IMG/VR virus record: IMGVR_UViG_2974628344_000001
Span: 60,329 to 124,328 of that record
DNA length: 64,000 bases
Source of the DNA: Streptomyces virus Wollford
Taxonomy: Duplodnaviria > Heunggongvirae > Uroviricota > Caudoviricetes
Direction: 5' to 3' (one strand)
This document shows, in pieces, positions 12,192-57,142 of the stretch (the stretch's first letter is position 1; the number at the start of each line of letters is the position of its first letter). The translations under genes were made by a program, and so were the position numbers. The notes under the pieces are model-generated. The model did not search any database. It saw only the letters and a program-made list of their open reading frames with translations, and had not been told where the DNA came from.

Positions 12192-12297
12192 TCTGTTAAA
12201 GTAGTAAATGTGGGTCGAAGGGCTCGGTCGGTTATCTTACATTGGAATCAGATCGCCATTAAATTGGCACCCGACTCCCAACACTTATCCACATTAT

Positions 12298-12371
12298 GCG
12301 GATGTAGTTTAATGGTAAAACCCCTGCCTTCCAAGCAGACGACGGGAGTTCGATTCTCCTCATCCGCTCCA
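12298..12371 (+). tRNA. tRNA-Gly (UCC), CCA encoded
   Basis: cloverleaf by hand: acceptor gcggatg/catccgc, loop cuUCCaa, T-arm gggagTTCGATTctcct, 3' cca. Confidence 0.8.
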
Positions 12372-12500
12372 TAGACCCGGATTCGCCTCTGTCATCTTTT
12401 GTGATATGCTACCGGCGAGATGTAGTCTAGAATGCATCTCGGTATCTGACCCGGATACGTTAAGAGAGCGCCAGGCTCTACAACTGGCAGGGTAACACAT

Positions 12501-12573
12501 TCCCCATTGGTGTAACTGGCAACACAGCAGACTCTGACTCTGTCGTTCCTAGTTCGAATCTAGGGTGGGGAGC
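12501..12573 (+). tRNA. tRNA-Gln (CUG)
   Basis: acceptor tccccat/gtgggga, anticodon loop cuCUGac, T-arm cctagTTCGAATctagg. Confidence 0.6.
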
Positions 12574-12804
12574 TGGTCCGACTTTACGATATCGGCGGAA
12601 ATAATCGAATCGGAACGCACGCAATAACCTAGGTAAAGGTGCGGAATGAGGAGAGGAAATATGCGGGAAGCGATGGGTAAAACCTCCTCGGACCGACAAT
12701 TTGCGGCCTAGTTGCAGGCCAGAATAGAACAATGGATTTCCCTGGGTTAGGCGCTTACGCCGTTCATTGTTTGAATTCAAAGGGGTCACGCCCAAGCAAC
12801 TTAT

Positions 12805-12876
12805 GCGTCCTTAGTGTAATGGTTTGCACACGAGCTTCCAAACCTCTTAGAGTGGGTTCGATTCCTACAGGACGTG
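12805..12876 (+). tRNA. tRNA-Trp (CCA)-like, weak anticodon stem
   Basis: acceptor gcgtcct/aggacgt, loop uuCCAaa, T-arm gtgggTTCGATTcctac; only 3 bp of anticodon stem pair. Confidence 0.45.
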
Positions 12877-12883
12877 CTTTGAA

Positions 12884-12916
12884 TAAAACCCCGGTGTCTA
12901 ATAGCACCGGGGTTTA
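12884..12916 (+). terminator. Rho-independent terminator
   Basis: aaaaccccggtg tctaata gcaccggggttt. Confidence 0.65.
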
Positions 12917-12930
12917 GCATTAGGAGACAA

Positions 12931-13377
12931 ATGGGATACTACACTAGATATCAATTAGAAATCGTAAGAGACAGTGAAAGAGCCAACGATCTCATTGACG
13001 ATGCTGAGAATGTCACAATTCCTGGAAGCTACGATCTGAATCTATCTAGATTGATCAATGGCAATTACGATACCATGAAGTGGTATGACTGGGAAAAGGA
13101 CATGGCATCTCTATCAAGAGATTGGCCAAACGTCCTCTTTGCTCTAAGTGGAGAGGGCGAAGAGCCTGGTGATCTCTGGAAGGCTTGGGTAAGAAACGGT
13201 AAGGTCATTAAGGTTCAAGGTAGAATCGTCTACGATGTACCCGACCTTGACAAGGTGCTTCCAGTCAACGATACTGTGGAAAAGGAATACAAGGCACAGA
13301 AGAAGGCAGAGCTTCAAGCCACCATTATGGATCTTGAGAACAGGTTGGCGAAGCTAAAGGGACTATCTAAGGATTGA
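12931..13377 (+). CDS. hypothetical protein (C-terminal coiled coil)
   Basis: 148-aa ORF after terminator. Confidence 0.45.
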   Translation: MGYYTRYQLEIVRDSERANDLIDDAENVTIPGSYDLNLSRLINGNYDTMKWYDWEKDMASLSRDWPNVLFALSGEGEEPGDLWKAWVRNGKVIKVQGRIVYDVPDLDKVLPVNDTVEKEYKAQKKAELQATIMDLENRLAKLKGLSKD

Positions 13378-13378
13378 A

Positions 13379-13537
13379 ATGGCACTAGTTGGAACTGGCA
13401 ATACTTGTTGGTTTCAGCGATGTGGCAATGCTCCAATTCACCGAATTAGATATCATAATAAAACTGTGATGGTTTGCAATAAGCACAAGAATCTCGATGG
13501 ATTAGGATGTTTGCCAAGTCGCAGACGACCAAAGTGA
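13379..13537 (+). CDS. small Cys-rich zinc-ribbon protein
   Basis: 52-aa ORF not in track (below 60 aa): MALVGTGNTCWFQRCGNAPIHRIRYHNKTVMVCNKHKN... Confidence 0.3.
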   Translation: MALVGTGNTCWFQRCGNAPIHRIRYHNKTVMVCNKHKNLDGLGCLPSRRRPK

Positions 13538-13609
13538 TTGAGAAATTTGCTTGATATCCGAATATCCTTTACTCTAGTTATGACCTTTTAAGGTCAATCT
13601 TTAACTGGG

Positions 13610-14675: not shown

Positions 14676-14747
14676 CAGGCACGGGGAAGATGGTAATCCG
14701 TTGGCTTTGGAAGCCTAAGACACTCGGTTCGATTCCGAGGTGCCTGA
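14676..14747 (+). tRNA. tRNA-Pro (UGG)
   Basis: acceptor caggcac/gtgcctg, loop uuUGGaa, T-arm ctcggTTCGATTccgag. Confidence 0.65.
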
Positions 14748-14771
14748 CCGAATGCAGTTCCTAGGGGCTGC

Positions 14772-14850: not shown

Positions 14851-14876
14851 GGTGTGATACGATAACTCACAACAAC

Positions 14877-14947
14877 TGGTACTAGTGTATGGGGAAGCAC
14901 GAGACATTTGGGATGTTTTAGGCGGAGTTCGAGTCTCCGGTACCGGA
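14877..14947 (+). tRNA. tRNA-Pro (UGG) second copy (G37)
   Basis: acceptor ctggtac/gtaccgg, anticodon stem agaca/tgttt, loop uuUGGga, T-arm cggagTTCGAGTctccg. Confidence 0.55.
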
Positions 14948-14949
14948 CA

Positions 14950-15015
14950 ATTTGGGTCGAATGGGATACGGTTATCACTCAATGGATAATAGGTTCGATT
15001 CCTATCGCTGGGTTC
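14950..15015 (+). tRNA. tRNA-like element (T-arm ataggTTCGATTcctat), 5' half not resolved
   Basis: T-loop at 14993-15003; no matching acceptor found by eye. Confidence 0.25.
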
Positions 15016-15110
15016 GCCTGGTAGATACAAGTCATCTGAGATTGTGTGTGGTAGGATGACATTAAGGACTACACACTCTCCGTTCCCGCCTTATACCTAA
15101 AGGAATTACC

Positions 15111-15632
15111 ATGACAGTACTTCTGAGAACGATTCATGGCTCTCATTTGTATGGCCTAGCTCATGCAGATTCCGACAAAGACATTTACGAAGTAATTGCT
15201 ACCAGTCGGACTAAGCGTAAGCGAAACATTAAGCAAACCATTTCTGATGGAGTTGACAAGACAGTAGTCGATATGTCAACATTTATGAGAATGGTTGATG
15301 AATGCGTACCTCAAGCACTTGAAGCGCTATGGACGCCGGTAGCTGAGATCGACAAGATCCACGAATTCCGGACACAATATCGAGTGAATCGCGCCAAGAT
15401 GAAAGATGTGTACGTACGAACTGCCCTTAACTTTGCTAAGGGTGATGGGGTAAAGCAGAAGAAGCACGCAGTGCGATTGCTGCTGAATCTTGGTCACACT
15501 TTGGAGTTTGGAAAGTTCAATCCTCGATTGGATGCAATGGATAAGATCATTATCAATGCATCTGTCGGAGACGCGGGAAAGTATGATGCCGTGTTCGACG
15601 CTCTAATTGATGAGGTCGGCCGGTGGATATGA
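15111..15632 (+). CDS. small Pol-beta-superfamily nucleotidyltransferase (putative)
   Basis: N-terminal hGSHLYGLAHADSDKDIY = GS-x9-13-DxD nucleotidyltransferase signature; 173 aa. Confidence 0.45.
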   Translation: MTVLLRTIHGSHLYGLAHADSDKDIYEVIATSRTKRKRNIKQTISDGVDKTVVDMSTFMRMVDECVPQALEALWTPVAEIDKIHEFRTQYRVNRAKMKDVYVRTALNFAKGDGVKQKKHAVRLLLNLGHTLEFGKFNPRLDAMDKIIINASVGDAGKYDAVFDALIDEVGRWI

Positions 15633-15641: not shown

Positions 15642-15718
15642 TGGGGCGTATACCCTCTGTCTGATAAACAGTTGAAAGGTTAAGTGGTCACATGTGGGTT
15701 CAACTCCCACCGTCCCAA
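15642..15718 (+). tRNA. tRNA-like (possible Ile GAU), atypical D region
   Basis: acceptor tggggcg/cgtccca, stem-loop ctgt-cuGAUaa-acag, T-arm gtgggTTCAACTcccac; D arm too short, extra 22 nt before T arm. Confidence 0.35.
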
Positions 15719-15755
15719 CTGGTCTCCTTGGTGAGACAATAACGAAAATAGAATC

Positions 15756-17833: not shown

Positions 17834-17907
17834 GCGCCTGTAGCATATTAGGTAGATGCGCCAGTCTTATATACTGGAGAAAGCGGGTTCAAATCCCGCC
17901 GGGCGTA
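17834..17907 (+). tRNA. tRNA-Ile (UAU)
   Basis: acceptor gcgcctg/cgggcgt, D gcat/atgc, anticodon stem ccagt/actgg, loop cuUAUau, T-arm gcgggTTCAAATcccgc. Confidence 0.75.
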
Positions 17908-17934
17908 CTTGTACTGTTAATTGAGAGGATCAGT

Positions 17935-18309: not shown

Positions 18310-18394
18310 GGCGGGTAAGCGATTGGTTAGCAGTCGTGTTGGAAGCACGATAAGGGTGTTAAAGCCCGGCAGAGTTCGATTCTCTGGCCCGCCG
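18310..18394 (+). tRNA. tRNA-Ser (GGA), long variable arm
   Basis: acceptor ggcgggt/gcccgcc, loop uuGGAag, extra arm, T-arm cagagTTCGATTctctg. Confidence 0.75.
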
Positions 18395-18405
18395 CTGGAG
18401 GTGCT

Positions 18406-18642: not shown

Positions 18643-18730
18643 GGAAGTGTTAACGTTGGCAGCGTGGAAGGCTCTTGAAAAGCCTACGGTATAGTGATAT
18701 ACCGCGTGAGTTCGAATCTCACCACTTCCG
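18643..18730 (+). tRNA. tRNA-Ser (UGA), long variable arm
   Basis: acceptor ggaagtg/cacttcc, loop cuUGAaa, extra arm, T-arm gtgagTTCGAATctcac. Confidence 0.75.
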
Positions 18731-18733
18731 CTT

Positions 18734-20425: not shown

Positions 20426-20502
20426 GGCCTATGGGACTGCTAGGTTGTGGTCACCGCCCTGTCAAGGCGGATATCAGGCGGGTTCGATTCCCGTATAGGT
20501 CG
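20426..20502 (+). tRNA. tRNA-Asp (GUC)
   Basis: acceptor ggcctat/ataggtc, anticodon stem ccgcc/ggcgg, loop cuGUCaa, T-arm gcgggTTCGATTcccgt. Confidence 0.65.
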
Positions 20503-20522
20503 CTCTTGTAATCAATCTAAGG

Positions 20523-20767: not shown

Positions 20768-20839
20768 CCCGGCGTGGTGAACTGGTTATCATGCTTGTCT
20801 GTCGAACAAGAGTAGAGGGTTCAATTCCCTTCGTCGGGG
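20768..20839 (+). tRNA. tRNA-Asp (GUC)-like second copy (G37)
   Basis: acceptor cccggcg/cgtcggg, D gtga/tcat, stem cttgt/acaag, loop cuGUCga, T-arm gagggTTCAATTccctt. Confidence 0.5.
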
Positions 20840-21060
20840 CTTTGAGGGTCGAATGATTATCGGTTATCTGTCTATGAAACAGACTGAAACACGGTTCGAA
20901 TCCGTGGATTGCTTTGGCGCTAGGTTTACGGTCGATATCAACAACTTATCCTCATACAACTTAATTCGGGCCGAAGAAGTTCGATTATCTTACACTGCAA
21001 ATATAAGATCGATCTTCACCAACTTGCCCGATCTTTTCATTTCTACGGAAGGATCAAAGG
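20840..21060 (+). ncRNA. candidate structured ncRNA (Y-RNA/YrlA-like?) upstream of Ro60 gene
   Basis: 220 nt with no convincing ORF; contains tRNA-like T-arm cacggTTCGAATccgtg (20888-20905) without full cloverleaf; track ORF 20853..21083 is low-complexity. Confidence 0.3.
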
Positions 21061-21431: not shown

Positions 21432-23060
21432 ATGTCCAACGCACTAACTAATGCCGCAAAGGCAACCAACAAGACTTCTCAGTCAATGAAGGCCAAGGAT
21501 GGACAGGTCAAGAACAACGCTGGTGGATTCGTCTTCCAGGTTTCTGATCAGTCACGCCTGGAGCGCTTCTTGATTCTAGGAACTGATGGAGGAACGTATT
21601 ACGTCTCTGAGGTTAACCATACTCAGTCAAACGTGAACTTCCTCAATGAGTTCATTGCTCGTGATGAGGCTAATGTGCTGAACACAATCGTTGATGTATC
21701 TGTCAATGGTCGTGCGTACAAGCAGTCTCCAGCCCTATTTGCTCTGGCTTCTGTCATTGTCAACGGCAAGGACAAGCAGGCAGTTAAGGCTGTATTCAAC
21801 AAGGTCGTAAGGACTGCTACTCATCTCTACGAGGTGGTTAACTATCTTAACGAGCTTGGTGGATGGGGTCGTGCAAAGCGTGAGATCGTAGCTGGTTGGT
21901 TCGATAAGGAAGCTGATAAGCTTGCTTATCAGGCAGTCAAGTATCGTTCCCGTACCTTTGGTGGAAACACCTGGACGCTACGAGACGTAATGCGAAAGGC
22001 TCACCCACAGAACGTCGACACGTCTGTTGCTGATTTCGTTCTAGGCAAGGAGCGCGATGCTACTGATAACCTTCGGGTTATTGAGGGCTTCAAGCTTATG
22101 CAGAAGGCGGAGTCTGTAGAGAGTGTTCATGCAGTTCTGCGGGATTACGAGATGCTTTCTTGGGAGACAATTCCAACGCAGTTCCTCACGGATGCTAGTG
22201 TTTGGAAGCGACTCTTCGCAAATGGTCAGCTTCGTGGTCAGGCTGCTGTTCGAAACATTACTCGCCTTGCGCGCATTGGTGCTTTCAAGGACATGCAGTT
22301 TGCTGCAAGCTTCGCCAGTCAGCTAACGAATGAGGAAATGATTCGTCAGTCTCGACTGCACCCAATTAACTTCCTCAACGCTGCTGTTGTTTATGCAGAA
22401 GGTCAGGTGGATCGAAAGAACATCTGGGGCGAACGTGTAAAGAACTGGGAGACTGAGGCCGTTATTGTCGATGCAATCGATGAGGCGTTCCACAAGTCAT
22501 TCAAGACCATTGAGCCAGCCGGTAAGAGGACGATGCTAGCCATCGACTGTTCCGGATCAATGAGTACACAGGCTATGGGTCTCGACCTAAGCTGTGCACA
22601 AGTTGCTGGTGCTATGGCGATGACCATTGCACGTACTGAGCCAGCTCACATCCTTCGTGGCTTTTCAAGCGCGGGATACAACTGGCGTGATAGCGGTATG
22701 GCCGAACTAAAGATTACTGGTCGCAGCTCTCTTGCTCAGGCAATGAGTGCAATGCGTGCGGTAAACTGGGGCGGTACAGACTGTTCACTGCCAATGACGT
22801 GGGCTCTTGAGAATGGTGTAGAAGTTGACACCTTCGTTGTTCTAACGGATAACGAAACATGGGCTGGAAAGATTCACCCATTCCAGGCTCTCAAGAACTA
22901 TCGTAAGAGCACAGGTATTGATGCACGACTTGCTGTTCTAGGAGTCGCTTCAACTCCATTCACTATTGCTGACCCAAGTGATAGTGGAATGATGGACTTC
23001 GTTGGCTTTGATAGCAACGCTCCACGTGTTCTAGCAGATTTTTCCGCCGGTCGAATCTGA
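21432..23060 (+). CDS. rsr: Ro60/Rsr orthologue (TROVE domain + C-terminal vWA)
   Basis: N-terminal NNAGGFVFQVSDQSRLERFLILGTDGGTYY TROVE signature; C-terminal LAIDCSGSM MIDAS (vWA); 542 aa. Confidence 0.85.
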   Translation: MSNALTNAAKATNKTSQSMKAKDGQVKNNAGGFVFQVSDQSRLERFLILGTDGGTYYVSEVNHTQSNVNFLNEFIARDEANVLNTIVDVSVNGRAYKQSPALFALASVIVNGKDKQAVKAVFNKVVRTATHLYEVVNYLNELGGWGRAKREIVAGWFDKEADKLAYQAVKYRSRTFGGNTWTLRDVMRKAHPQNVDTSVADFVLGKERDATDNLRVIEGFKLMQKAESVESVHAVLRDYEMLSWETIPTQFLTDASVWKRLFANGQLRGQAAVRNITRLARIGAFKDMQFAASFASQLTNEEMIRQSRLHPINFLNAAVVYAEGQVDRKNIWGERVKNWETEAVIVDAIDEAFHKSFKTIEPAGKRTMLAIDCSGSMSTQAMGLDLSCAQVAGAMAMTIARTEPAHILRGFSSAGYNWRDSGMAELKITGRSSLAQAMSAMRAVNWGGTDCSLPMTWALENGVEVDTFVVLTDNETWAGKIHPFQALKNYRKSTGIDARLAVLGVASTPFTIADPSDSGMMDFVGFDSNAPRVLADFSAGRI

Positions 23061-26325: not shown

Positions 26326-26396
26326 GCCCCTATAGTCTAAGGGTAGGATACAAGATTCTCAATCTTGTGGTCGGAGTTCAACTCTCCGTAGGGGTA
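26326..26396 (+). tRNA. tRNA-Glu (CUC)
   Basis: acceptor gccccta/taggggt, stem caaga/tcttg, loop uuCUCaa, T-arm cggagTTCAACTctccg. Confidence 0.75.
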
Positions 26397-26397
26397 C

Positions 26398-26947: not shown

Positions 26948-27019
26948 AGCCCCCATCGTCTAGTGGCTAGGATCTGAGACTTTCAATCTCAAGGGGAGGG
27001 TTCAATTCCCTCTGGGGGT
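26948..27019 (+). tRNA. tRNA-Glu (UUC)
   Basis: acceptor gccccca/tgggggt, stem tgaga/tctca, loop cuUUCaa, T-arm gagggTTCAATTccctc. Confidence 0.8.
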
Positions 27020-27088
27020 ACGTGGGCCGTGACGCAACAAACTCTTTAAGAGAAAATCCTATGGCGTACGCATAGGAACACGGCTTAT

Positions 27089-27161
27089 GCGGGTGTCGTC
27101 TAGCGGCAAAGGCTCCTGCCTTACAAGCAGGTAATCGGAGGTTCGAGTCCTCTCACCCGTA
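27089..27161 (+). tRNA. tRNA-Val (UAC)
   Basis: acceptor gcgggtg/cacccgt, stem cctgc/gcagg, loop cuUACaa, T-arm ggaggTTCGAGTcctct. Confidence 0.8.
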
Positions 27162-27162
27162 C

Positions 27163-27419: not shown

Positions 27420-27497
27420 GGGTCTGACAGGTGTGACGTTACTGAAAGCCGACAATGGACCGGTAACGGATAGTGGGTTCGACTCCCACCAGATCCA
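27420..27497 (+). tRNA. tRNA-like element, 78 nt, anticodon arm ambiguous
   Basis: acceptor gggtctg/cagatcc, T-arm gtgggTTCGACTcccac; interior does not fold into a clean D/anticodon pair by eye. Confidence 0.35.
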
Positions 27498-27606
27498 CGC
27501 TGGAGAATTGAAAGTCTTGAAAAGTTGGTCACTCAGTAGAGATTGTTTCACATGCAGGTCTAACCAGCCTCCATGCCGGGCTCAAATCCGGATTCTTCGT
27601 TAACTT

Positions 27607-27681
27607 GCTCCCATAGCCCAACTGGCAGGAGGCACAAGGCTTAGACCCTTGGTAGTGTCGGTTCGAATCCGACTGGGAGTA
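27607..27681 (+). tRNA. tRNA-Leu (UAG), short variable arm
   Basis: acceptor gctccca/tgggagt, stem caagg/ccttg, loop cuUAGac, T-arm gtcggTTCGAATccgac. Confidence 0.6.
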
Positions 27682-27686
27682 CGCAA

Positions 27687-27761
27687 GCCCGCGTAGGCAA
27701 ATTTGGCAAAGCCGTCGGATTTAGGCTCCGGAATTTGCGAGTTCGAGTCTCGCCGTGGGTA
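27687..27761 (+). tRNA. tRNA with UAG anticodon (second copy, G37)
   Basis: acceptor gcccgcg/cgtgggt, stem tcgga/tccgg, loop uuUAGgc, T-arm gcgagTTCGAGTctcgc. Confidence 0.5.
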
Positions 27762-27762
27762 C

Positions 27763-27814: not shown

Positions 27815-27941
27815 AGGAATGTAGTTTAATGGCAAAACCGCGAAATGCAATGTCGAACGAGAAGTGCTGCTGAGCTAAAGGCGGGTCTTCTACTAGTAGA
27901 TAACAGAGTAGCAGTTGTGGGTTCGAATCCCGCCATTCCGC
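27815..27941 (+). tRNA. tRNA-like with about 55-nt insertion between D arm and T arm (interrupted or pseudo tRNA)
   Basis: 5' part aggaatg-ta-gttt-aatggca-aaac matches tRNA-Gly 12298 D-arm; 3' part gtgggTTCGAATcccgc-cattccg; 75 nt intervening. Confidence 0.3.
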
Positions 27942-28157: not shown

Positions 28158-28205
28158 CTAGGGTTGAAGTTTGACAGATTATTTCAACCCATGTATACTT
28201 ACCAT

Positions 28206-42473: not shown

Positions 42474-42584
42474 TAAAGAGTCTTGACAGCCAGCTTAATA
42501 AATATTAAGCTGGCTGTCGCATGCCAGGGAAGTTCTTTGGTAAGAACAGTCTCTCTATAGTGTCATTTGACTGTGCACGGTCTC

Positions 42585-42613
42585 TTGACACCTCTTAGTA
42601 GCGCTGCTAAGAT
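42585..42613 (+). promoter_or_regulatory. promoter TTGACA-N17-TAAGAT
   Basis: recurrent family. Confidence 0.35.
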
Positions 42614-42657
42614 GACAGAGTAGAAAGGTTGGAGGTTCGATTCCTCCCCCTGGCCCT
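42595..42657 (+). tRNA. tRNA-like fragment (T-arm ggaggTTCGATTcctcc)
   Basis: T-loop 42631-42647; no complete cloverleaf found. Confidence 0.25.
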
Positions 42658-42689
42658 ACAATCTTGGCCCCAAGAGGCAACTAATGGTC

Positions 42690-42794
42690 ACCGGGATGCA
42701 TACCGCCCATTGGTCCTTATCTGGGTACCACGTTTATGCAACCGACGGGTTGAGCCCATAAATAATGGGGCAGGTTCAAATCCTGCTGGGGTCT
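42690..42794 (+). other. tRNA-like 3' module (T-arm gcaggTTCAAATcctgc + acceptor tggggtc) on an over-long (about 129 nt) element
   Basis: nearest complementary 5' strand ggcccca lies 129 nt upstream. Confidence 0.25.
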
Positions 42795-43825: not shown

Positions 43826-44893
43826 ATGAAGTTCACCAAGATTTTCTCACATGAGCTGCTTGATGAGATGATCTCTGAGGGATACGTCCGGGTGCAAACT
43901 CATCCGGTCCTGCCTCTCAAGATTCTCAATTACAGCGAGAAGACTCAGTTCGCCGGAAAGTGGAACGAGTGCACGCTTAACTGTCGTGGCACGATCGTTG
44001 ACTTTGATGGCAATCTGATCGCTCGTCCTTTCATGAAGTTCTTCAATCTTGGTGATTCTCAGTCAGCACAACTCGACTGGGATGCGCCTGTTGAGGTGAC
44101 AGATAAGAAGGACGGATCTATGGGAGTTCTGTACTCCTATGGTGGTCAGATGGCGATTGCCACGCGTGGTTCATTCATGTCAGATCAGGCAATTCATGCG
44201 ACTCGTGTTCTTAACGAGCGCTACAGCCACATTCAGTTCGTATCAGACTACACATTCATCTTTGAGATCGTTTATCCTGAGAACAGGATTGTTCTGGACT
44301 ACGGTTCAATGGACGATCTGATTCTTCTGGGAGCGGTTCACAAGGAGTATGGCTACGTCTGTGGTCCTGTAGAGGCTCAGGCAATTGTAAATTGGGACGG
44401 GCCGGTGACGGAGGTCTTCAATTACCACTCTTTGCGTGAGGCTGCTGTAGCAGATTACCGTAAGAATGCAGAGGGTTTCGTAGTCCGTTCTGGCAACAAG
44501 ATGGTTAAGATCAAGCAGGCAGATTACGTTGAGTTGCACCGCATGATCTCCATGCTTTCTGAGCGTTCTGTATGGAGTCAGCTTTCCCAGGGAAAGACCA
44601 TTCTGGAGATTTGTGAGGCTCTGCCTGACGAGTTTCACCAGTTCGTCAAGGATGTTGGTGGAGAGTTGCTGCGGCAGTTCCGTGACACTGAGATCCTTGT
44701 GTGGGACCACTTCAATGCGTTGATTGAGAGTCTTCCTAGTGATTTCTCTCGGCGTGACTTCGCAATGAAGGCAAACGGAGTGGATCTTTACCGTTCTCAC
44801 ATGTTCAACCTGCTTGACGGGAAGAGCATCGATGAGCTAGTCTGGAAGCAGTTGAAGCCAGAGGCTAAGAAAGAGGATGGTTACCCGCAGTGA
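43826..44893 (+). CDS. ATP-dependent RNA ligase (Rnl-type nucleotidyltransferase)
   Basis: motif I K-x-D-G (VTDKKDGSM) of covalent nucleotidyltransferases; 355 aa; adjacent to Pnkp. Confidence 0.6.
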   Translation: MKFTKIFSHELLDEMISEGYVRVQTHPVLPLKILNYSEKTQFAGKWNECTLNCRGTIVDFDGNLIARPFMKFFNLGDSQSAQLDWDAPVEVTDKKDGSMGVLYSYGGQMAIATRGSFMSDQAIHATRVLNERYSHIQFVSDYTFIFEIVYPENRIVLDYGSMDDLILLGAVHKEYGYVCGPVEAQAIVNWDGPVTEVFNYHSLREAAVADYRKNAEGFVVRSGNKMVKIKQADYVELHRMISMLSERSVWSQLSQGKTILEICEALPDEFHQFVKDVGGELLRQFRDTEILVWDHFNALIESLPSDFSRRDFAMKANGVDLYRSHMFNLLDGKSIDELVWKQLKPEAKKEDGYPQ

Positions 44894-45368: not shown

Positions 45369-45540
45369 AGCCATTAGCTTTGCAGGAGGAGTAGTGGTTG
45401 GTCTTCTAGCAGGGCTTGTCATTGGGTGTACAGCTCTTATATATGGATTCATTGATGGGTTGACAAACATCGATGGTCCGCCTAAGATGGGTATCATCCA
45501 AGACTGGAAGAATCGAAGGGCTTACAAGAAGGGTAAGTGA
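45349..45540 (+). CDS. small membrane protein
   Basis: 63 aa, one TM. Confidence 0.35.
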   Translation: MVISMSEAISFAGGVVVGLLAGLVIGCTALIYGFIDGLTNIDGPPKMGIIQDWKNRRAYKKGK

Positions 45541-46427
45541 TGCAGCTTCTCATTCTCCGGGGTATTCCCGGTTGTGGAAAGAGCACTTGGGCCCACGAGT
45601 GGCTTAAGGAAAATCCGAACGGCGTTCGTGTCAATCGAGACGACATTCGTATGCAGCTCTTTGGCCGAGAGGTCGGAGTAGATGAGCAGCTTGTTACTCG
45701 GATTGAGCATTCAATGGTTGATGGCGCGCTAGCGCAAGGTTACTCAGTCATTGTTGATGACACAAACATCCGTCACAAGTACATCAAGGAATTTGTTAAG
45801 ATCGGGCAGCGCTTTGGTGCTAATGTCTCAGTGAAGCAGTTCGATGTTTCTGTTGAAACTGCCATTGAGCGTAACAGCGCTCGTGCTGCGGCCGGTGGTC
45901 GAGATGTTCCTGAGTCTGTTATTCGTAAGATGCATCAGTCAATGAAGTCTAGTGGAGTCTTCACTGATTTCCACACGACTGTTACGGCTGTTCGTCAGTA
46001 TGAGCGTCCTGACAATGCAGAGATGGTCTACCTATTTGACATTGATGGCACGCTTGCTGAGATGAACGATCGTGATCCCTTCTACTGGAAGGGTGTTGGC
46101 AATGATGATCCGCGTCGACAAGTGATTCTTACTGCTCAGGCTCACGCCAAGGCAGGATATAAGATCATCGTCATGAGTGGACGAGATGGCTCATGTCGCA
46201 ATGAAACAATCGCTTGGCTGGACCTATACGACATTCCTTTCTCAGAATTGCACATGCGTGCTGAGGGAGACATGCGTAAGGATTCTATCGTCAAGCAAGA
46301 GCTGTTTGATCAGCACATCCGTGACATTTACGATGTTGTGGCTGTGTACGATGATCGTCAGCAAGTTGTTGACATGTGGCGTGCAATGGGCATAGACTGT
46401 TTCCAGGTAGCACCCGGAAACTTCTGA
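45537..46427 (+). CDS. pnk: bifunctional polynucleotide 5'-kinase / 3'-phosphatase (T4 Pnkp-like)
   Basis: N-terminal P-loop GIPGCGKST + RDD; C-terminal HAD phosphatase motif FDIDGTLA ... GRD. Confidence 0.8.
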   Translation: MMQLLILRGIPGCGKSTWAHEWLKENPNGVRVNRDDIRMQLFGREVGVDEQLVTRIEHSMVDGALAQGYSVIVDDTNIRHKYIKEFVKIGQRFGANVSVKQFDVSVETAIERNSARAAAGGRDVPESVIRKMHQSMKSSGVFTDFHTTVTAVRQYERPDNAEMVYLFDIDGTLAEMNDRDPFYWKGVGNDDPRRQVILTAQAHAKAGYKIIVMSGRDGSCRNETIAWLDLYDIPFSELHMRAEGDMRKDSIVKQELFDQHIRDIYDVVAVYDDRQQVVDMWRAMGIDCFQVAPGNF

Positions 46428-47747: not shown

Positions 47748-47820
47748 GCGCTTGTAGGCAAATGGCAAAGCCACTGGACTTAAAATCCGGAGTATGAGAG
47801 TTCGAATCTCTCCAGGCGCA
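47748..47820 (+). tRNA. tRNA-Leu (UAA), short variable arm
   Basis: acceptor gcgcttg/caggcgc, stem ctgga/tccgg, loop cuUAAaa, T-arm gagagTTCGAATctctc. Confidence 0.65.
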
Positions 47821-47821
47821 C

Positions 47822-48137: not shown

Positions 48138-48219
48138 GCGCCTATGGTGGAATGGCAGACACACTAGACTGAGACTCTAGGCTCGAAAGGGCGTCCGGGT
48201 TCAAGTCCCGGTAGGCGTA
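48138..48219 (+). tRNA. tRNA-Leu (GAG), long variable arm
   Basis: acceptor gcgccta/taggcgt, stem ctaga/tctag, loop cuGAGac, extra arm, T-arm ccgggTTCAAGTcccgg. Confidence 0.8.
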
Positions 48220-48220
48220 C

Positions 48221-48796: not shown

Positions 48797-48867
48797 GCCC
48801 GCTTAGTTCAATGGTAGAACGCCTGCACGACACGCAGGGAACGGGAGTTCAATTCTCTCAGCGGGTA
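48797..48867 (+). tRNA. tRNA-Val (GAC)-like (C33 in loop; anticodon uncertain)
   Basis: acceptor gcccgct/agcgggt, D gttc/gaac, stem cctgc/gcagg, loop acGACac, T-arm gggagTTCAATTctctc. Confidence 0.5.
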
Positions 48868-48890
48868 CTCCATCGACCGAAGGGTTTCAA

Positions 48891-49814: not shown

Positions 49815-49891
49815 GTCCCTGTAGCAGAATCAGGCAGATGCGCCGGTCTCAAAAACCGGGTCTTATGTGGGTTCGAGTCCCACCAGGGATA
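49815..49891 (+). tRNA. tRNA-Leu (CAA)
   Basis: acceptor gtccctg/cagggat, stem ccggt/accgg, loop cuCAAaa, T-arm gtgggTTCGAGTcccac. Confidence 0.6.
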
Positions 49892-49906
49892 CTTTGAAGG
49901 AGGAAT

Positions 49907-50140: not shown

Positions 50141-50229
50141 GGAAGTGTGGCTGAGAGGCTTAAGGCACCAGTTTGCTAAACTGGCGAGTGAATAAAGTAG
50201 CTCCGCAGGTTCAAATCCTGTCACTTCCG
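50141..50229 (+). tRNA. tRNA-Ser (GCU), long variable arm
   Basis: acceptor ggaagtg/cacttcc, stem ccagt/actgg, loop uuGCUaa, extra arm, T-arm gcaggTTCAAATcctgt. Confidence 0.8.
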
Positions 50230-50233
50230 CTTA

Positions 50234-55205: not shown

Positions 55206-55211
55206 TTGCAT

Positions 55212-55613
55212 ATGTCCAGAATATCTACAGCGTTTGTGAAGATGTACAAGCATCCCCTCGGTACTATCGAGGTGATGATTGCTGTTGGTCTTTTGGTTTC
55301 AGGATTGTATACGATGAGTTGGTTTTATGAACCTGCATCAACGACTCCCTTGGGTGTAGCTGTTGATTCAACCGCAGTGAGAATGAGTATTGGAGCATTT
55401 TATTCACTCTCCGCTCTGACTGTCATTTTTGGATCTGTTAGATCAAATGACGGCTGGCGTGCAAAAGGTTTGTTTGCTATTTCTCTGAGCTATGGGTTTA
55501 TGACATTGCTCAGATGGCTAACTATTGGAATTACTCCATTGACTTGGGTGTTCAGCCTTACTCTCATGTTCATCGTTGCATTCCTTTACTTTAGGATAAG
55601 GTTGCTGAGATGA
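55212..55613 (+). CDS. integral membrane protein (4 TM)
   Basis: four hydrophobic helices; holin-like size. Confidence 0.4.
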   Translation: MSRISTAFVKMYKHPLGTIEVMIAVGLLVSGLYTMSWFYEPASTTPLGVAVDSTAVRMSIGAFYSLSALTVIFGSVRSNDGWRAKGLFAISLSYGFMTLLRWLTIGITPLTWVFSLTLMFIVAFLYFRIRLLR

Positions 55614-55909
55614 TGCCCGAGATGACTACGGCTTGGATTGCCCTATTGGGAACGGTGCTGGGGGGTGTTGGACTTAAGTTTGTTGAACACTGGCTCAGTC
55701 GTAGCAAGGTACGGGATGACACAGCCGCTCAGCTTAGAAATGAGCTAAGGACTGAAATTCAGGGCCTCAAGCAGGAGCTGAACAATGTTGAAGCCGACCT
55801 AGACAAGTGGCGTGGAAAGTATTACGAATTGATGGACAACTTCATCAAGGTAAAGAGTGAGCTAGAAGCAGCCATGAGGCAGCTACAAAACAATCAACCC
55901 CCTGGCTAA
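55610..55909 (+). CDS. membrane-anchored coiled-coil protein
   Basis: N-terminal TM then coiled coil LRNELRTEIQGLKQELNNVEADLDKWRGKYYEL. Confidence 0.35.
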   Translation: MMPEMTTAWIALLGTVLGGVGLKFVEHWLSRSKVRDDTAAQLRNELRTEIQGLKQELNNVEADLDKWRGKYYELMDNFIKVKSELEAAMRQLQNNQPPG

Positions 55910-55942
55910 TGCTGGGGGTGTTGTGTTATAGTAAGGAGCAAT

Positions 55943-56134
55943 ATGCAAACAGTTGCGGAACGTCCGCTGAATAAGACAGAAGATCGTTGCGATAAGTGCA
56001 GCGCTCAGGCATTTGTAATTGCAGAGAAGGAAGATCTTGTACTTCTGTTCTGCGGGCATCATGGCAAGCAATACAAGCAATCACTTGAGGTAAAGGGATG
56101 GAGTCTACTAGACTTCACAGATGAGATCGGATGA
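55943..56134 (+). CDS. zinc-ribbon small protein
   Basis: CDKCSAQ...CGHH. Confidence 0.35.
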   Translation: MQTVAERPLNKTEDRCDKCSAQAFVIAEKEDLVLLFCGHHGKQYKQSLEVKGWSLLDFTDEIG

Positions 56135-56137
56135 TCA

Positions 56138-56353
56138 ATGGGCTACATAGAAGTATGGGTAGATGAAGAGGAATTCGAAGACGACTTCCTTGACGCTCTA
56201 CAGAGTGGCGAGTATGATGAACATGTAAGACGCCGAGCCGAAATGCTTGGACTAGATGTTTCTATAGCTCAGAAGTTTCACGAGCTGCTGCATCCGCAGG
56301 GCACGTTGACAATCGAGCGGTGCAGAGAGTATCCTTGTAACGAAGCCACCTGA
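56138..56353 (+). CDS. hypothetical acidic protein
   Basis: 71-aa ORF. Confidence 0.35.
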   Translation: MGYIEVWVDEEEFEDDFLDALQSGEYDEHVRRRAEMLGLDVSIAQKFHELLHPQGTLTIERCREYPCNEAT

Positions 56354-56366
56354 TGAAAGGTAAGTA

Positions 56367-56780
56367 ATGGAAATCGGAGATATTGTAATTCTTGCCAACG
56401 ACCCTGATGCCGGAAGTGGCTGGGAGGGTCTTATGTGCGAGGTTACTGAGATTAACGAATCCAGGGGTGGATATACATGGGTACGACCTTTTAGCAATCG
56501 ACCTGATGGATTCAAGAAGGCTCCATTCTTCTGGAAGACAAGGAATATGCAGACAAGAAGGATCGAAGATCCTGGCCCTGCAAAGGGTGCTCTAGCTATG
56601 ATTGTTGTCCCCCAGGAAGAAATTGACAGCAATCCCAATCTTGCAAAGTGGCAGGGATTTGAAGCCACTGTAGAAAGGGTTGATGGTAGCATGGTCAGAA
56701 TTCGTGCCCTGTCTCCTCGCCCTGATGGAAACAAGATACTTTCCTTTTATTGGGAAAAGAAGTGGCTCATCTTCGAATGA
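56367..56780 (+). CDS. tandem-duplicated KOW/SH3-like protein
   Basis: two repeats each ending RP(D/F)...RPDG(F/N)K... FxWxK. Confidence 0.45.
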   Translation: MEIGDIVILANDPDAGSGWEGLMCEVTEINESRGGYTWVRPFSNRPDGFKKAPFFWKTRNMQTRRIEDPGPAKGALAMIVVPQEEIDSNPNLAKWQGFEATVERVDGSMVRIRALSPRPDGNKILSFYWEKKWLIFE

Positions 56781-56800
56781 GTCTCGCCCTTCGGGGCTAT

Positions 56801-56875
56801 TCCCCCGTGGTCTGCTGGCATGGCCCACCTGACTTTGAATCAGGTTGTTCGTAGGTTCGATTCCTGCCGGGGGAG
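56801..56875 (+). tRNA. tRNA-Gln (UUG)
   Basis: acceptor tcccccg/cggggga, stem cctga/tcagg, loop cuUUGaa, T-arm gtaggTTCGATTcctgc. Confidence 0.7.
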
Positions 56876-56896
56876 CTTTTAATTGGAGGAGATAAT

Positions 56897-57142
56897 ATGG
56901 CTGCACAGTTCAGCTTTAATGATCCAAACGGTAAGCCTGTAAACAAGGTCGACTACGTAAAGGTAAAGAACGCACCTCGTAATCTAAGTGAGTGGAATGG
57001 TGTAGTGGCAATGGTCATGAGCGTCCCTCTTACAGATCGTACAGTTCTTCTTTCAATTGAGAAGAACAAGCCAAAGAATTACGACCAGCGAATTGTCTAC
57101 ATTTCAACTCAGTACCTATATCTTGAGAAGAAGAGGACTTGA
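56897..57142 (+). CDS. small protein (KOW/SH3-like family)
   Basis: 81-aa ORF. Confidence 0.4.
   Translation: MAAQFSFNDPNGKPVNKVDYVKVKNAPRNLSEWNGVVAMVMSVPLTDRTVLLSIEKNKPKNYDQRIVYISTQYLYLEKKRT

Follow-up and report, generated by a model that had tools for sequence, protein, structure and literature searches.

The tRNA island of Streptomyces phage Wofford holds 44 tRNA genes, one tmRNA gene, four Y-RNA-like genes and five well-supported non-canonical tRNA-like genes, and we consider it fairly likely that the island constitutes a module for host-independent translation and RNA maintenance. The window, meaning the whole 64,000-nucleotide stretch of DNA that we analyzed, is 100% identical to this phage (MH576968/NC_048722), a 133-kb siphovirus of the BE-type cluster. 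The 44 tRNAs, the tmRNA, the Rnl1-type ligase, Pnkp, RlaP, Ro60 and the DEDDh exonuclease are all annotated in the deposited record, and the proposed anti-defense role is also published. In 2018, the tRNAs of Wofford's cluster were explained by codon fit or by countering tRNA cleavage (PMC5764925), and in 2021 a counter-defense model combining phage tRNAs, RNA repair and TROVE was put forward for large phages generally (PMC7824862). This part of the finding is real but known. The interesting part of the island is its unannotated RNAs. About ten unannotated structured RNAs are present in the region, and new among them are four conserved Y-RNA-like genes, a conserved D-arm-less tRNA-like gene (E3), an RNA made of the tmRNA tRNA-like domain only, and three long-arm tRNA-like RNAs.

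The tRNA gene set

ARAGORN called 43 tRNAs and one tmRNA, all on the + strand, from 12298 to 56876, and Rfam confirmed this set. At E ≤ 1, Rfam added a tRNA-Tyr at 37608-37679 and tRNA-like matches at 15642-15718, 27420-27500 and 27815-27941; the deposited record lists 44 tRNAs plus the tmRNA. The tRNA genes are as follows (ARAGORN and Rfam unless stated otherwise).

12298..12371, +, Gly(UCC), encodes CCA
12501..12573, +, Gln(CUG)
12805..12877, +, Trp(CCA)
14676..14749, +, Pro(UGG) copy 1
14876..14948, +, Pro(UGG) copy 2
17834..17908, +, Ile(UAU)
18310..18395, +, Ser(GGA) (ARAGORN; annotated)
18643..18731, +, Ser(UGA) (ARAGORN; annotated)
20426..20503, +, Asp(GUC) copy 1, extended D-arm (ARAGORN; low Rfam score, 35 bits)
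20768..20840, +, Asp(GUC) copy 2
26326..26397, +, Glu(CUC)
26949..27021, +, Glu(UUC)
27089..27162, +, Val(UAC)
27607..27682, +, Leu(UAG) copy 1
27687..27762, +, Leu(UAG) copy 2
28086..28158, +, Phe(GAA) copy 1
28748..28819, +, Gly(GCC)
28925..28998, +, Arg(UCU), canonical
29522..29594, +, Ala(UGC)
29826..29899, +, Lys(CUU) copy 1
30862..30939, +, Asn(GUU) copy 1, extended D-arm (ARAGORN; low Rfam score, 31 bits)
31473..31546, +, Asn(GUU) copy 2
33175..33247, +, Arg(CCU), canonical
33747..33822, +, Ala(GGC), encodes CCA
34070..34143, +, Lys(CUU) copy 2
34268..34345, +, Lys(CUU) copy 3
34707..34780, +, Lys(UUU)
34808..34882, +, Arg(UCG)
35908..35980, +, Met(CAU) copy 1
36477..36549, +, Met(CAU) copy 2, into which the 3' end of HNH gene gp171 extends (ARAGORN, Rfam; annotated)
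37335..37418, +, Tyr(GUA) copy 1
37608..37679, +, Tyr(GUA) copy 2, missed by ARAGORN (annotation; Rfam 35.3 bits; fold)
37682..37756, +, His(GUG)
37757..37829, +, Phe(GAA) copy 2
38435..38510, +, Cys(GCA) (ARAGORN; annotated)
38556..38631, +, Thr(UGU)
38723..38795, +, Thr(GGU)
38914..38986, +, Arg(ACG)
47748..47821, +, Leu(UAA)
48138..48220, +, Leu(GAG)
48797..48868, +, Val(GAC)
49815..49892, +, Leu(CAA)
50141..50230, +, Ser(GCU)
56801..56876, +, Gln(UUG), last tRNA in the island

These 44 tRNAs carry 35 anticodons, cover all 20 amino acids and form a complete decoding set. The initial annotation had described a giant island of at least 45 tRNA or tRNA-like genes with near-full amino-acid coverage. 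Its lower bound holds, as an underestimate of the tally given above, and coverage by ARAGORN and Rfam is full. The Ile(UAU) gene that it reported is present, and so are the duplicated Asp, Asn, Pro, Tyr, Phe and Leu-UAG genes (two copies each) and Lys, which has four; Met is duplicated in addition. Just 2 of the 43 ARAGORN tRNAs, Gly(UCC) and Ala(GGC), encode CCA, and CCA-adding activity is therefore needed for the island tRNAs, presumably that of the host enzyme.

tRNA dosage and codon usage

Phage GC3 is 0.47 compared to a host G+C of ~72%, a 25-point gap, so the host tRNA pool would suit phage messages poorly. Across amino acids, tRNA gene number correlated with phage usage (Spearman rho 0.54, p=0.015; 0.59 counting E3). 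The duplicated NNY-box tRNAs serve heavily used codons (Asp 730, Asn 448, Phe 409 and Tyr 379 codons), and the single-copy ones serve 209 (His) and 130 (Cys). tRNA-Lys is the most over-supplied two-codon family, its 4 genes having 176 codons per gene compared to 354-435 for Ala, Gly, Val and Glu. Among phage Lys codons 94% are AAG, whose decoder Lys(CUU) is present in three copies. AAG is G-ending, and a high-GC host should favor it and read it well. Duplication of its decoders in spite of this fits replacement of the host pool, not a mere top-up for rare codons. tRNAs are also kept for codons that the phage hardly uses (TTA 6, ATA 25, AAA 40), an observation that simple demand leaves unaccounted for. 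By published tAI, BE capsid genes are better matched to the tRNAs of the phage than to those of the host (p=2.6e-8; PMC10690885). The computable data point mainly to tRNA supply.

RNA-repair enzymes, exonuclease and Ro60

Five protein genes are embedded in the tRNA array.

15111..15632, +, gp107, RlaP-family Pol-beta nucleotidyltransferase, 173 aa (PF10127, 29.3 bits, cut-off 23)
21432..23060, +, gp125, Ro60, TROVE + vWA_Ro60 (PF05731 at 4e-35; PF25045 at 1.5e-59)
39177..39734, +, gp189, DEDDh exonuclease (PF16473, Rv2179c-like, 34.9 bits, cut-off 27)
43826..44893, +, gp202, Rnl1-type RNA ligase (PF09511 RNA_lig_T4_1 at 2.3e-15)
45540..46427, +, gp206, T4-type polynucleotide 5'-kinase/3'-phosphatase, Pnkp (AAA_33 kinase + HAD_PNKP phosphatase)

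The initial annotation had named these as a small nucleotidyltransferase, Ro60, a DEDDh exonuclease, an Rnl-type ligase and a T4-like Pnkp, and Pfam found the corresponding domains at the positions it gave, except that Pnkp is annotated as starting at 45540 instead of 45537. The best solved relatives of gp202 are T4 Rnl1 structures (2c5u/5tt6, E 6e-14), with motifs I (KxDG), III (E), IV (EG) and V (KxK) aligned, which identifies it as an RNA ligase, not a DNA ligase. The match is confined to the nucleotidyltransferase domain (residues 49-257), and no similarity was found between the C-terminal region and the tRNA-specificity domain of T4 Rnl1. RefSeq lists gp202 as a tail-fiber attachment catalyst, an annotation that T4 Rnl1 also bears. 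gp206 matched 4xrp Pnkp1 (3e-46) and T4 Pnk (1ltq, 2e-43) over its full length, shares the kinase-phosphatase architecture of the latter, and carries GIPGCGKST and DIDGTL motifs.

gp107 has the hGS...SDKD motif; it is short (173 aa vs the 249-position RlaP Pfam model), its score is modest (29 bits), and no solved relative was found by sequence. Its gene lies 28 kb away from the ligase gene, not adjoining it. In vitro, the RlaP family adds 1-2 nucleotides to 3' ends of damaged RNA (PMC12776372), and RlaP has been proposed to counter ribotoxins that excise nucleotides, e.g. RloC. We infer the tRNA-repair activity of gp202, gp206 and gp107 from homology only. gp189 was deposited as a 'DnaQ-like DNA polymerase III subunit'; the characterized 3'-5' exoribonuclease Rv2179c (PDB 6s0m, 4oke, E about 1e-20) is much the nearer relative.

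Y-RNA-like genes

Homologues of the Ro60 protein gp125 occur in 358 phage records. A motif scan for GNCGAA(N)G...GGUUAUC modules observed 4 where 0.59 were expected, and revealed four unannotated Y-RNA-like genes.

12209..12293, +, Y-D, Y-RNA-like (UGUGGGUCGAAGGG...GGUUAUC...AUCCACA stem), island start
14951..15101, +, Y-C, YrlA-like (GGGUCGAAUGGGAUACGGUUAUC, long closing stem; T-arm 14989-15005)
20844..20955, +, Y-A, YrlA-like (GAGGGUCGAAUGAUUAUCGGUUAUC; T-arm 20890-20906)
20966..21031, +, Y-B, classic bulged-stem Y RNA (UCGGGCCGAAG...GAUUAUC...CACCAACUUGCCCGA), then a U-tract (also Rfam RF01656)

Alignments of these genes contained 5 covarying pairs each for Y-A (A6) and Y-C (A10), 3 for Y-B (A7), and 2 for Y-D (A9), whose 7-bp lower stem is invariant. 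Y-B gave a near-threshold match to RF01656 at 20962-21034 (37.1 bits, gathering 38; E 5.5e-5), and the Rfam YrlA model matched none of the four at E ≤ 10. Y-A (about 480-590 nt upstream) and Y-B sit just upstream of Ro60, and the other two of the four are more than 4 kb from it, Y-C ending 10 nt 5' of the RlaP start codon. Modules of this kind also occur in other phages, Bxz1 among them, for the most part no more than about 1.7 kb upstream of Ro60.

tmRNA and non-canonical tRNA-like genes

The tmRNA, which the initial annotation had overlooked, is accompanied by five unusual tRNA-like genes.

40156..40437, +, tmRNA, tag peptide ANSNVASAYALAA (ARAGORN; RF00023, 98.7 bits vs 47)
15642..15719, +, E3, D-arm-less tRNA-like gene, unannotated (Rfam tRNA, 30.3 bits; no ARAGORN call)
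27420..27498, +, E1, tmRNA tRNA-like-domain-only RNA, unannotated (Rfam tmRNA model, 29.8-38.4 bits)
27815..27941, +, E2, 127-nt tRNA-like RNA, unannotated (Rfam tRNA, 34.2 bits)
42523..42655, +, E4, 133-nt long-arm tRNA-like RNA, invariant hairpin CUAGUAGCGCUGCUAG
42666..42793, +, E5, 128-nt long-arm tRNA-like RNA, directly 3' of E4 (7/7 acceptor pairs, T-arm)

E3 reads CUGAUAA in its anticodon loop (anticodon GAU, Ile) and has discriminator A and C74. ARAGORN found no canonical tRNA-Ile(GAU) in the window, and E3 is the sole candidate decoder for 558 AUY codons. It covaries in two alignments. In A3 the anticodon loop is invariant above a covarying stem; in A8, of E3-type genes, 97.5% of cells are paired and 17/19 pairs show compensatory changes (0/500 shuffles). 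In relatives, E3 paralogues stand in the very slots of canonical tRNA-Arg genes: the Arg(UCU) slot (28925..28998) holds a D-arm-less version in five relatives, and the Arg(CCU) slot (33175..33247) does so in Yaboi.

E1 parallels the ends of the phage tmRNA and looks like a tmRNA minus its middle, with invariant G3:U70 and A73, a T-arm and an 8-bp stem, and without the coding part. E2 has acceptor, D and T arms, and in place of the anticodon arm a conserved long arm (invariant GNCGAA, variable hairpin cap). E1 and E2 each occur in 83 phage records, E2 as a single copy per genome, and their alignments contained 7 (A1) and 6 (A2) covarying pairs. E4, with 11 covarying pairs (A4), occurs in 48 phage records, unannotated in all, and has UAGUAG...ACAGAGUAG in common with E2. 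E5 is 90-92% identical across three BE1-type loci.

Discussion

That the island is chiefly a layered counter-defense, with replacements for tRNAs cut by PrrC/RloC/VapC/PARIS/retron/Schlafen-type nucleases and repair by Pnkp, RlaP and Rnl1, is possible but rather doubtful. The initial annotation had offered this interpretation, which appears partly supported, its gene identifications being the part that holds. The T4-type healing and sealing pair and RlaP have intact catalytic motifs, RlaP has been proposed as a counter to nucleotide-excising ribotoxins such as RloC, the over-supplied tRNA-Lys is a classical nuclease target, and the phage decodes AAG, which its host should read well. The model is a legitimate hypothesis, not a new one, already stated for Wofford's cluster and for large phages (PMC5764925, PMC7824862). 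In other phages, tRNAs have been found experimentally to defeat tRNA-targeting defenses (PMC11555353, PMC11464382, PMC10264068), and anticodon-loop escape mutations support the model in mycobacteriophages. However, no Streptomyces tRNA-targeting nuclease was identified or tied to these phages, dosage tracks codon demand for most tRNAs, and the published tAI already accounts for the set by codon fit (PMC10690885). That same result and the 25-point GC gap favor pure codon compensation, in which the tRNAs top up host-rare codons and the 'repair' enzymes serve replication end processing, tail-fiber attachment and DNA proofreading, as the deposited name of gp189 and the RefSeq name of gp202 would suggest. 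We find this improbable, as the set is complete and not limited to A/U-ending codons, with three Lys(CUU) genes for AAG and tRNAs retained for the almost unused TTA, ATA and AAA. Moreover, gp189 is far nearer to a characterized exoribonuclease than to DnaQ, RlaP acts on RNA (PMC12776372), and Y-like RNAs accompany Ro60, all embedded with the enzymes in the tRNA array.

E1-E5 and the E3-type genes might instead be degenerating pseudogenes of tRNAs or the tmRNA, without a function of their own, that remain from rapid turnover of the array promoted by HNH endonucleases. HNH genes are scattered among the tRNAs, one overlapping a tRNA, tRNA content varies among close relatives, the gaps hold several more isolated T-arm hairpins and short fragments, and E1 resembles a tmRNA with a deleted middle. 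Yet E1, E2 and E3 are fixed in position in 14/14 BE-type sequences (the window and 13 loci) with Ro60 identity down to 73%, compensatory changes preserve every helix in the alignments of E1-E4 and the E3 type, and conservation falls at the borders of E1. The invariant anticodon loop of E3 above its covarying stem, and the occurrence of E3-type Arg genes where the canonical gene of the same anticodon is not found, likewise make such decay quite unlikely.

In the translation and RNA-maintenance module that we favor, Pnkp would, by homology, heal 2',3'-cyclic-phosphate/5'-OH ends on broken tRNAs, RlaP could restore a nucleotide lost at the 3' end of the break, Rnl1 would reseal it, and the tmRNA would release stalled ribosomes. 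Gene neighborhood and motifs suggest that Ro60 may load onto the four Y-RNA-like transcripts, nearby and elsewhere in the island, and deliver RNAs that are damaged or misfolded to an exoribonuclease, as in bacteria, whether host PNPase or the phage's Rv2179c-like enzyme. Since the same equipment would also blunt host tRNA-cleaving defenses, codon supply and damage tolerance would be two benefits of one module.

Identity of the island and its published record

A 12-kb piece of the window was 100% identical to the genome of Streptomyces phage Wofford (MH576968 / NC_048722; 133,007 bp; host S. griseus ATCC 10137), and a further 106 records, from related Streptomyces phages, matched at lower identity. 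Record positions convert to window positions by subtracting 60,328. The deposit already annotates 44 tRNAs and one tmRNA, and at the coordinates given initially the genes that the initial annotation had read as RNA-repair and RNA-surveillance enzymes are entered as 'RNA ligase', 'polynucleotide kinase', 'nucleotidyltransferase', 'Ro-like RNA binding protein' and 'DnaQ-like DNA polymerase III subunit'. The Wofford island is the same system as the islands of the BE cluster, its own phage cluster, with >40 tRNAs, one tmRNA and ~49% G+C (PMC5764925, PMC10690885); the Ro-like, RNA ligase and polynucleotide kinase genes are annotated there as in Wofford, and we found no difference among the annotated genes.

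For BE1 phages, 43–48 tRNAs and one tmRNA have been reported, together with a G+C content ~20 points under that of the host (Hughes et al. 2018, PMC5764925), and the capsid genes of all BE phages have a tAI that fits the phage tRNAs better than the host tRNAs (deCarvalho et al. 2023, PMC10690885). A model for large phages combines tRNAs, RNA ligases, polynucleotide kinase/phosphatases, RlaP and TROVE with a tRNA-like partner, and holds that such genes let the phage survive when the translation machinery is attacked by the host (Iyer et al. 2021, PMC7824862); the initial annotation had arrived at the same model. Because the genome, its annotation (the tRNA count and the ligase, kinase and Ro assignments) and both the codon-fit and the counter-defence hypotheses have already been published, the island and its interpretation are known. 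Missing from the deposited BE-cluster records are four Y-RNA-like genes (Y-A to Y-D) and five tRNA-like RNAs (E1–E5), and the exoribonuclease is named there as a DnaQ-like polymerase subunit. What merits further work is the set of unannotated RNAs, above all the family of tRNA-like genes that lack a D-arm.

The tRNA set and codon use

From 12298 to 56876, ARAGORN called a tmRNA and 43 tRNAs, every one of them on the + strand, and Rfam agreed. A second tRNA-Tyr (37608-37679) is annotated and supported by Rfam. The near-complete amino-acid coverage claimed initially proved to be coverage of all 20 amino acids by 35 anticodons, and the anticodon duplications claimed with it are real; the tmRNA had been overlooked.

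40156-40437, + strand: tmRNA (RF00023, 98.7 bits against a cut-off of 47; ARAGORN tag ANSNVASAYALAA)

Over 10,471 codons, from 52 annotated genes in the window, GC3 was 0.47; the hosts of BE phages have 71–72% G+C (PMC10690885). The number of tRNA genes rose with amino-acid use (Spearman rho 0.54, p = 0.015). Among the two-codon NNY boxes, Asp, Asn, Phe and Tyr are heavily used and duplicated, and His and Cys are single. AAG accounts for 94% of Lys codons, and Lys(CUU) is present three times. The tRNA dosage, the NNY duplications and the threefold Lys(CUU) fit a supply matched to demand.

Other features of the set are what one would expect if it replaced the host pool, and a replacement set also makes the phage resilient when tRNAs are lost. 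The set is complete and not confined to A/U-ending codons, Lys tRNAs are in excess of Lys use, and decoders of TTA, ATA and AAA are kept though these codons are nearly unused. AAG should be decoded well by a high-GC host, and the phage set still covers it. Since this pattern suits host-pool replacement, we favour the reading of the island as a host-independent translation and RNA-maintenance module. Codon fit is the part of this reading that is seen directly; repair or counter-defence would be further roles predicted from the gene content. Phage tRNAs have been proven experimentally to defeat tRNA-targeting defences in other phages. For the Wofford island, codon supply is the better-documented benefit and counter-defence a putative one.

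Of the 43 ARAGORN tRNAs, Gly(UCC) and Ala(GGC) are the two that encode CCA, so the set depends on a CCA-adding activity; no CCA-adding enzyme was found among the island ORFs scanned against Pfam. The other 41 tRNAs end in N73-C74, an ending that they have in common with E1–E3. One Asp copy (20426-20503) and one Asn copy (30862-30939) have an extended 6-bp D-stem and score 31–35 bits in Rfam, far under their twins. The second tRNA-Tyr is also low (35 bits), and all three have GUN anticodons.

RNA-repair and exonuclease proteins

Pfam and comparison with solved structures bore out the initial assignments of the ligase, Pnkp, nucleotidyltransferase, Ro60 and exonuclease genes. The ligase gp202 matched PF09511 at 57.5 bits (cut-off 28.3), and its best solved relatives were the T4 Rnl1 structures 2c5u and 5tt6. 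Motifs I, III, IV and V aligned with 2c5u (K-K-D-G; the Glu of ...FEIV...; EGFV; VKIK), and in sequence comparison the similarity to T4 Rnl1 stopped at residue 257 of 355. The protein carries the hallmarks of an RNA ligase of the Rnl1 (T4 RNA ligase 1) family, with a putative role in joining 3'-OH and 5'-phosphate ends at breaks in tRNA anticodon loops. In gp206, AAA_33 covers residues 3–136 and HAD_PNKP residues 163–295, and full-length alignments were obtained with the bacterial RNA-repair Pnkp1 (4xrp, 3e-46) and with the T4 enzyme (1ltq, 2e-43). Its motifs GIPGCGKST (P-loop), RDD and DIDGTL (phosphatase DxDxT) mark it as a full-length T4-type Pnkp with an N-terminal P-loop 5'-kinase and a C-terminal HAD 3'-phosphatase, as initially proposed.

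The nucleotidyltransferase gp107 matched the RlaP family (PF10127) at 29.3 bits against a cut-off of 23, over profile positions 19–161 of 249. The protein is short and has the Pol-beta signature HGSHLYG...SDKD; a sequence search of the PDB returned no meaningful solved relative. RlaP has been shown to extend damaged 3' ends of RNA by one or two nucleotides, and T4 NrdC.11 is a member of the family. The family takes its name from genes that adjoin one for an RNA ligase; the gp107 gene (15111-15632), by contrast, lies 28 kb from the ligase gene (43826-44893), within the same tRNA island, and its immediate neighbours are Y-C and E3.

The DEDDh exonuclease gp189 (39177-39734) matched PF16473 at 34.9 bits (cut-off 27) and RNase_T at only 17.3 bits, under the cut-off of 24. 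Its closest solved relatives are 3'-5' exoribonucleases of the Rv2179c type (PDB 6s0m, 4e-21; 4oke, 9e-21), and the deposited name 'DnaQ-like DNA polymerase III subunit' is probably wrong. In RefSeq the protein is called 'Rnase H'. gp189 is better regarded as an exoribonuclease, and this lends strength to the view that the island takes part in RNA surveillance. A Pfam search of 20 more island ORFs for further RNA-repair domains returned only a GNAT acetyltransferase, Band-7, KTSC and DUFs.

Like the T4 set that counters the PrrC anticodon nuclease (Pnkp, Rnl1 and the RlaP NrdC.11), the Wofford genes specify a kinase-phosphatase that agrees in domain order and motifs, a ligase of the Rnl1 type in which every catalytic motif is present, and a nucleotidyltransferase of the RlaP family. 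The C-terminal domain of the Wofford ligase, in contrast, is unrelated by sequence to that of T4 Rnl1, from which the T4 enzyme derives its tRNA specificity, and the repair genes, unlike those of T4, are dispersed at 15.1, 43.8 and 45.5 kb within the tRNA array. T4 carries 8 tRNAs, as against the full set in Wofford, and it answers PrrC; for Wofford, neither a matching host nuclease nor an activator is known. The jumbo-phage kit (PMC7824862) has in common with Wofford the tRNAs, an RNA ligase, a polynucleotide kinase/phosphatase, RlaP and TROVE with a tRNA-like RNA partner. Unlike the jumbo phages and the bacterial rsr-yrlA-rtcBA operon (PMC7790460), Wofford is a 133-kb siphovirus and encodes Rnl1, not RtcB.

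Y-RNA-like genes beside Ro60

The Ro60 proposed initially, gp125, contains both the TROVE ring (PF05731, 122 bits) and the Ro60-vWA domain (PF25045, 201 bits). Ro60 proteins usually operate with Y RNAs as partners, and the deposited record annotates none. The YrlA model RF02553 found no match in the whole window at E<=1 and none in 14940-21100 at E<=10; the same model does detect YrlA beside Ro60 in mycobacteriophage Bxz1. Y-like RNAs came to light when a sweep for T-arm hairpins outside known genes was combined with a near-threshold match to RF01656 and a scan for GGUUAYC preceded by GNCGAA(N0-1)G, the motif of Chen et al. 2014 (PMC4201824). Four modules turned up in the scan (12214, 14956, 20848 and 20970), where 0.59 would be expected in shuffles. 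Each marks a candidate Y-RNA-like gene:

20844-20955, + strand: Y-A, motif at 20848; closing stem supported (covariation alignment A6)
20966-21031, + strand: Y-B, motif at 20970; stem supported (A7)
14951-15101, + strand: Y-C, motif at 14956 (A10); ends 10 nt before the RlaP start codon
12209-12293, + strand: Y-D, motif at 12214 (A9); opens the island

All four are kept at the same positions in relatives, with stems maintained by compensatory changes, and in each the motif sits close to the 5' end, in the stem that this end builds with the 3' end. On the Ro60 strand, Y-A and Y-B precede the gene by ~400–590 nt, an arrangement also seen in Bxz1. The YrlA model comprises a D-arm, a T-arm and a closed acceptor-like stem; of these, Y-A and Y-C have just the T-arm. 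The region of Y-B (20962-21034) matched RF01656, the family of the nematode stem-bulge RNAs, homologues of Y RNA, at 37.1 bits (gathering threshold 38; E 5.5e-5), and in a Nocardia genome RF01656 scored above threshold directly upstream of Ro60. Other Ro60-encoding phages contain one to four motif modules, mostly within ~1.7 kb upstream of Ro60. Together these features suggest that the Ro60 of these Streptomyces phages has Y-RNA-like candidate partners encoded beside its gene.

The C1 mycobacteriophages of the Bxz1 type are, like Wofford, large actinophages with ~30 or more tRNAs, a tmRNA and Ro60, which is 39–40% identical to that of Wofford and is accompanied by YrlA/YrlB (PMC4201824, PMC10264068). 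Bxz1 has two Y RNAs (GNCGA(A/G)...GGUUAYC) directly upstream of Ro60 on the same strand, whereas Wofford has four Y-like RNAs that Rfam YrlA does not match, two of them far from Ro60. Neither D-arm-less tRNAs nor E1, E2, E4 or E5 were found in the Bxz1 locus examined. The Y-like genes beside Ro60 bring a phage Ro60 RNP within reach of direct tests, in a phage-host pair that is open to genetics.

A family of D-arm-less tRNA-like genes

Downstream of the RlaP gene lies an unannotated tRNA-like RNA with the anticodon GAU:

15642-15719, + strand: E3, D-arm-less tRNA-like RNA; starts 10 nt after the RlaP stop codon

E3 has a 7-bp acceptor stem, a 5-bp T-stem with T-loop, and a 4-bp stem with the 7-nt anticodon loop CUGAUAA, which includes U33 and R37; its discriminator A73 is followed by C74, as in other phage tRNAs. 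It departs from the cloverleaf in that the D-arm is absent. After the acceptor stem come just three nucleotides (UAU) and then a 3-bp helix around the anticodon hairpin; UAAnGGA stands 3' of the hairpin, between it and the T-arm. Rfam aligns E3 with the D-arm deleted, and ARAGORN never calls E3-type genes. In alignments A3 and A8 all four helices covary, and the CUGAUAA loop is invariant among orthologues.

A strict regular-expression detector missed most E3-type members, and a covariance model was used instead. It found E3 in the window and in all 13 BE-type loci, as well as paralogues with loops reading CCU, UCG, UCU and ACG. Among 15 distinct members, 97.5% of cells were paired compared to 41–52% with shifted partners, 17 of the 19 pairs had compensatory changes and the covariation score was reached by none of 500 shuffles, figures that are somewhat inflated as the alignment was fitted to the model. 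E3-type genes in relatives include:

L141 (Yaboi): 16131-16209 and 20449-20527
L012: 20599-20674
L020: 20023-20099
L015: 12980-13057
L013: 19036-19110
L009: 15238-15312

In the related phage Yaboi, canonical tRNA-Arg(UCU) and tRNA-Arg(CCU) are both absent from a 48-kb stretch spanning its tRNA island, and the slots that these genes occupy in Wofford are filled by E3-type genes with the loops CUUCUAA and CUCCUAA (flanks 75–94% identical). The CUUCUAA gene is deposited as 'tRNA-Val(aac)', which is implausible. Across 14 BE-type sequences, the Arg(UCU) slot held the canonical gene in nine and a gene matching the model and uncalled by ARAGORN in five, never both; the loop CUUCUAA was read directly in two of these five (Yaboi and L009). 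E3-type Arg genes occupy canonical slots in Yaboi, L008, L009, L011 and L012. UCG/UCU complementarity was also seen within the 21-kb loci L012, L020 and L015, the latter two having no matching canonical gene. This slot-for-slot replacement is the strongest argument for E3-type genes as tRNAs, with charging and decoding as putative functions.

The window contains no canonical Ile(GAU) gene, which makes E3 the only candidate decoder of 558 AUY codons in Wofford. As an account of a missing Ile(GAU) throughout the cluster this proved only partly true: Yaboi and six other relatives carry both genes.

D-arm-less tRNAs occur in mitochondria. Bacteria and phages have tRNAs with an 8/4 or 9/3 cloverleaf (Mukai et al. 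2017, PMC5389517). E3-type genes resemble such non-canonical tRNAs in the 7-bp acceptor, the 5-bp T-arm, the 7-nt loop with U33 and purine 37, and in being missed by standard finders; they differ from the mitochondrial D-arm-less and the 8/4 and 9/3 tRNAs in the enclosing 3-bp helix and in the D-loop-like UAAnGGA 3' of the anticodon hairpin. No prior description of this architecture was found in the literature searched.

Further tRNA-like RNAs

Four other unannotated RNAs in the island keep parts of the tRNA fold:

27420-27498, + strand: E1, aligns to both ends of the tmRNA model
27815-27941, + strand: E2, long-arm tRNA-like RNA
42523-42655, + strand: E4, long-arm tRNA-like RNA
42666-42793, + strand: E5, long-arm tRNA-like RNA

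E1 has the alanine identity elements G3:U70 and A73, both invariant, and the same T-loop as the phage tmRNA. It lacks the coding part and the tag reading frame, and with 29.8–38.4 bits against the tmRNA model, below 47, it corresponds to the tRNA-like domain only. E1 is present in 83 phage genomes, and conservation ceases at its borders. It might bind SmpB or AlaRS.

In E2, E4 and E5 (~125 nt) the acceptor, D and T arms are present and the anticodon arm is replaced by a conserved long arm. The Ro60 genes of Chloroflexia, Polyangiaceae and some Actinomycetota are flanked by RNAs of this layout and size whose long arm contains YrlA motifs (for example L094 4230-4351, L123 4285-4408 and L128 6324-7013). 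These bacterial RNAs have an open-acceptor topology; most YrlA RNAs are described as circularly permuted, with a closed acceptor loop. E2 had itself suggested a Y RNA by its invariant GNCGAA, its position 4.75 kb downstream of Ro60 and the use of the same architecture beside bacterial Ro60, a candidacy that was downgraded once Y-like RNAs were found directly upstream of Ro60. In Mildred21, E2 is annotated as tRNA-Tyr. E2 as an intron-containing tRNA was rejected, as its insert has neither a 7-nt anticodon loop nor GUA in a U33 context and, at 55–70 nt, is shorter than a group I intron could be. A scan of viral contigs for the E2/E4 signature returned BE phages and two unrelated ordinary tRNAs (L044, L045).

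Further T-arm hairpins lie in intergenic gaps at 28823-28918, 54849-54905, 14781-14843, 36729-36745 and 28650-28666. Some are accompanied by a fitting acceptor stem, namely an element of 96 nt with two T-like hairpins, a mini-element of 57 nt and another element of 63 nt; the latter two are 91–98% identical in Yaboi. These hairpins may represent additional mimics or the remains of tRNAs.

Other genes in and near the island

ORFs at 12931-13377 (148 aa) and 13379-13537 (52 aa), unannotated in Wofford, correspond to Yaboi genes 106 and 107, and the protein of the larger one is 85% identical to its Yaboi counterpart. HNH endonuclease genes (28206-28649 and 36056-36514) lie inside the tRNA array, and gp171 overlaps tRNA-Met by 38 nt. 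The HNH genes may drive tRNA gain, loss and replacement between relatives. Other genes are embedded among the tRNAs:

31574-32443: Band-7/SPFH
35058-35849: vWA-TerF-like
41048-41452: GNAT acetyltransferase
52325-53095: calcineurin-like metallophosphoesterase
13619-14605: collagen-repeat

Between 61011 and 64000, a 1.37-kb stretch without an annotated gene is followed by a change to minus-strand genes, and G+C rises to 0.54. The window may here be nearing the long terminal repeat that has been described for BE-type phages.

Discussion

A joint reading of the unannotated RNAs, which we put forward tentatively and judge to fall just short of an even chance, takes the E3-type genes as working, aminoacylated decoding tRNAs with a rearranged core, and E1, E2, E4 and E5 as tRNA mimics that act as partners or decoys. 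The mimics would then engage SmpB, Ro60, nucleases or repair enzymes. The E3-type genes would form a structural class of tRNA undescribed in bacteria or their viruses and missed by standard finders, and E3 would be the sole tRNA-Ile(GAU) encoded by Wofford, reading 5% of all codons.

If E3-type genes are functional, phage tRNA censuses, and codon-adaptation or 'missing tRNA' analyses based on ARAGORN or tRNAscan-SE, would be systematically incomplete. It would also mean that a core architecture linked until now with mitochondria is acceptable to the synthetases, EF-Tu and ribosomes of bacteria.
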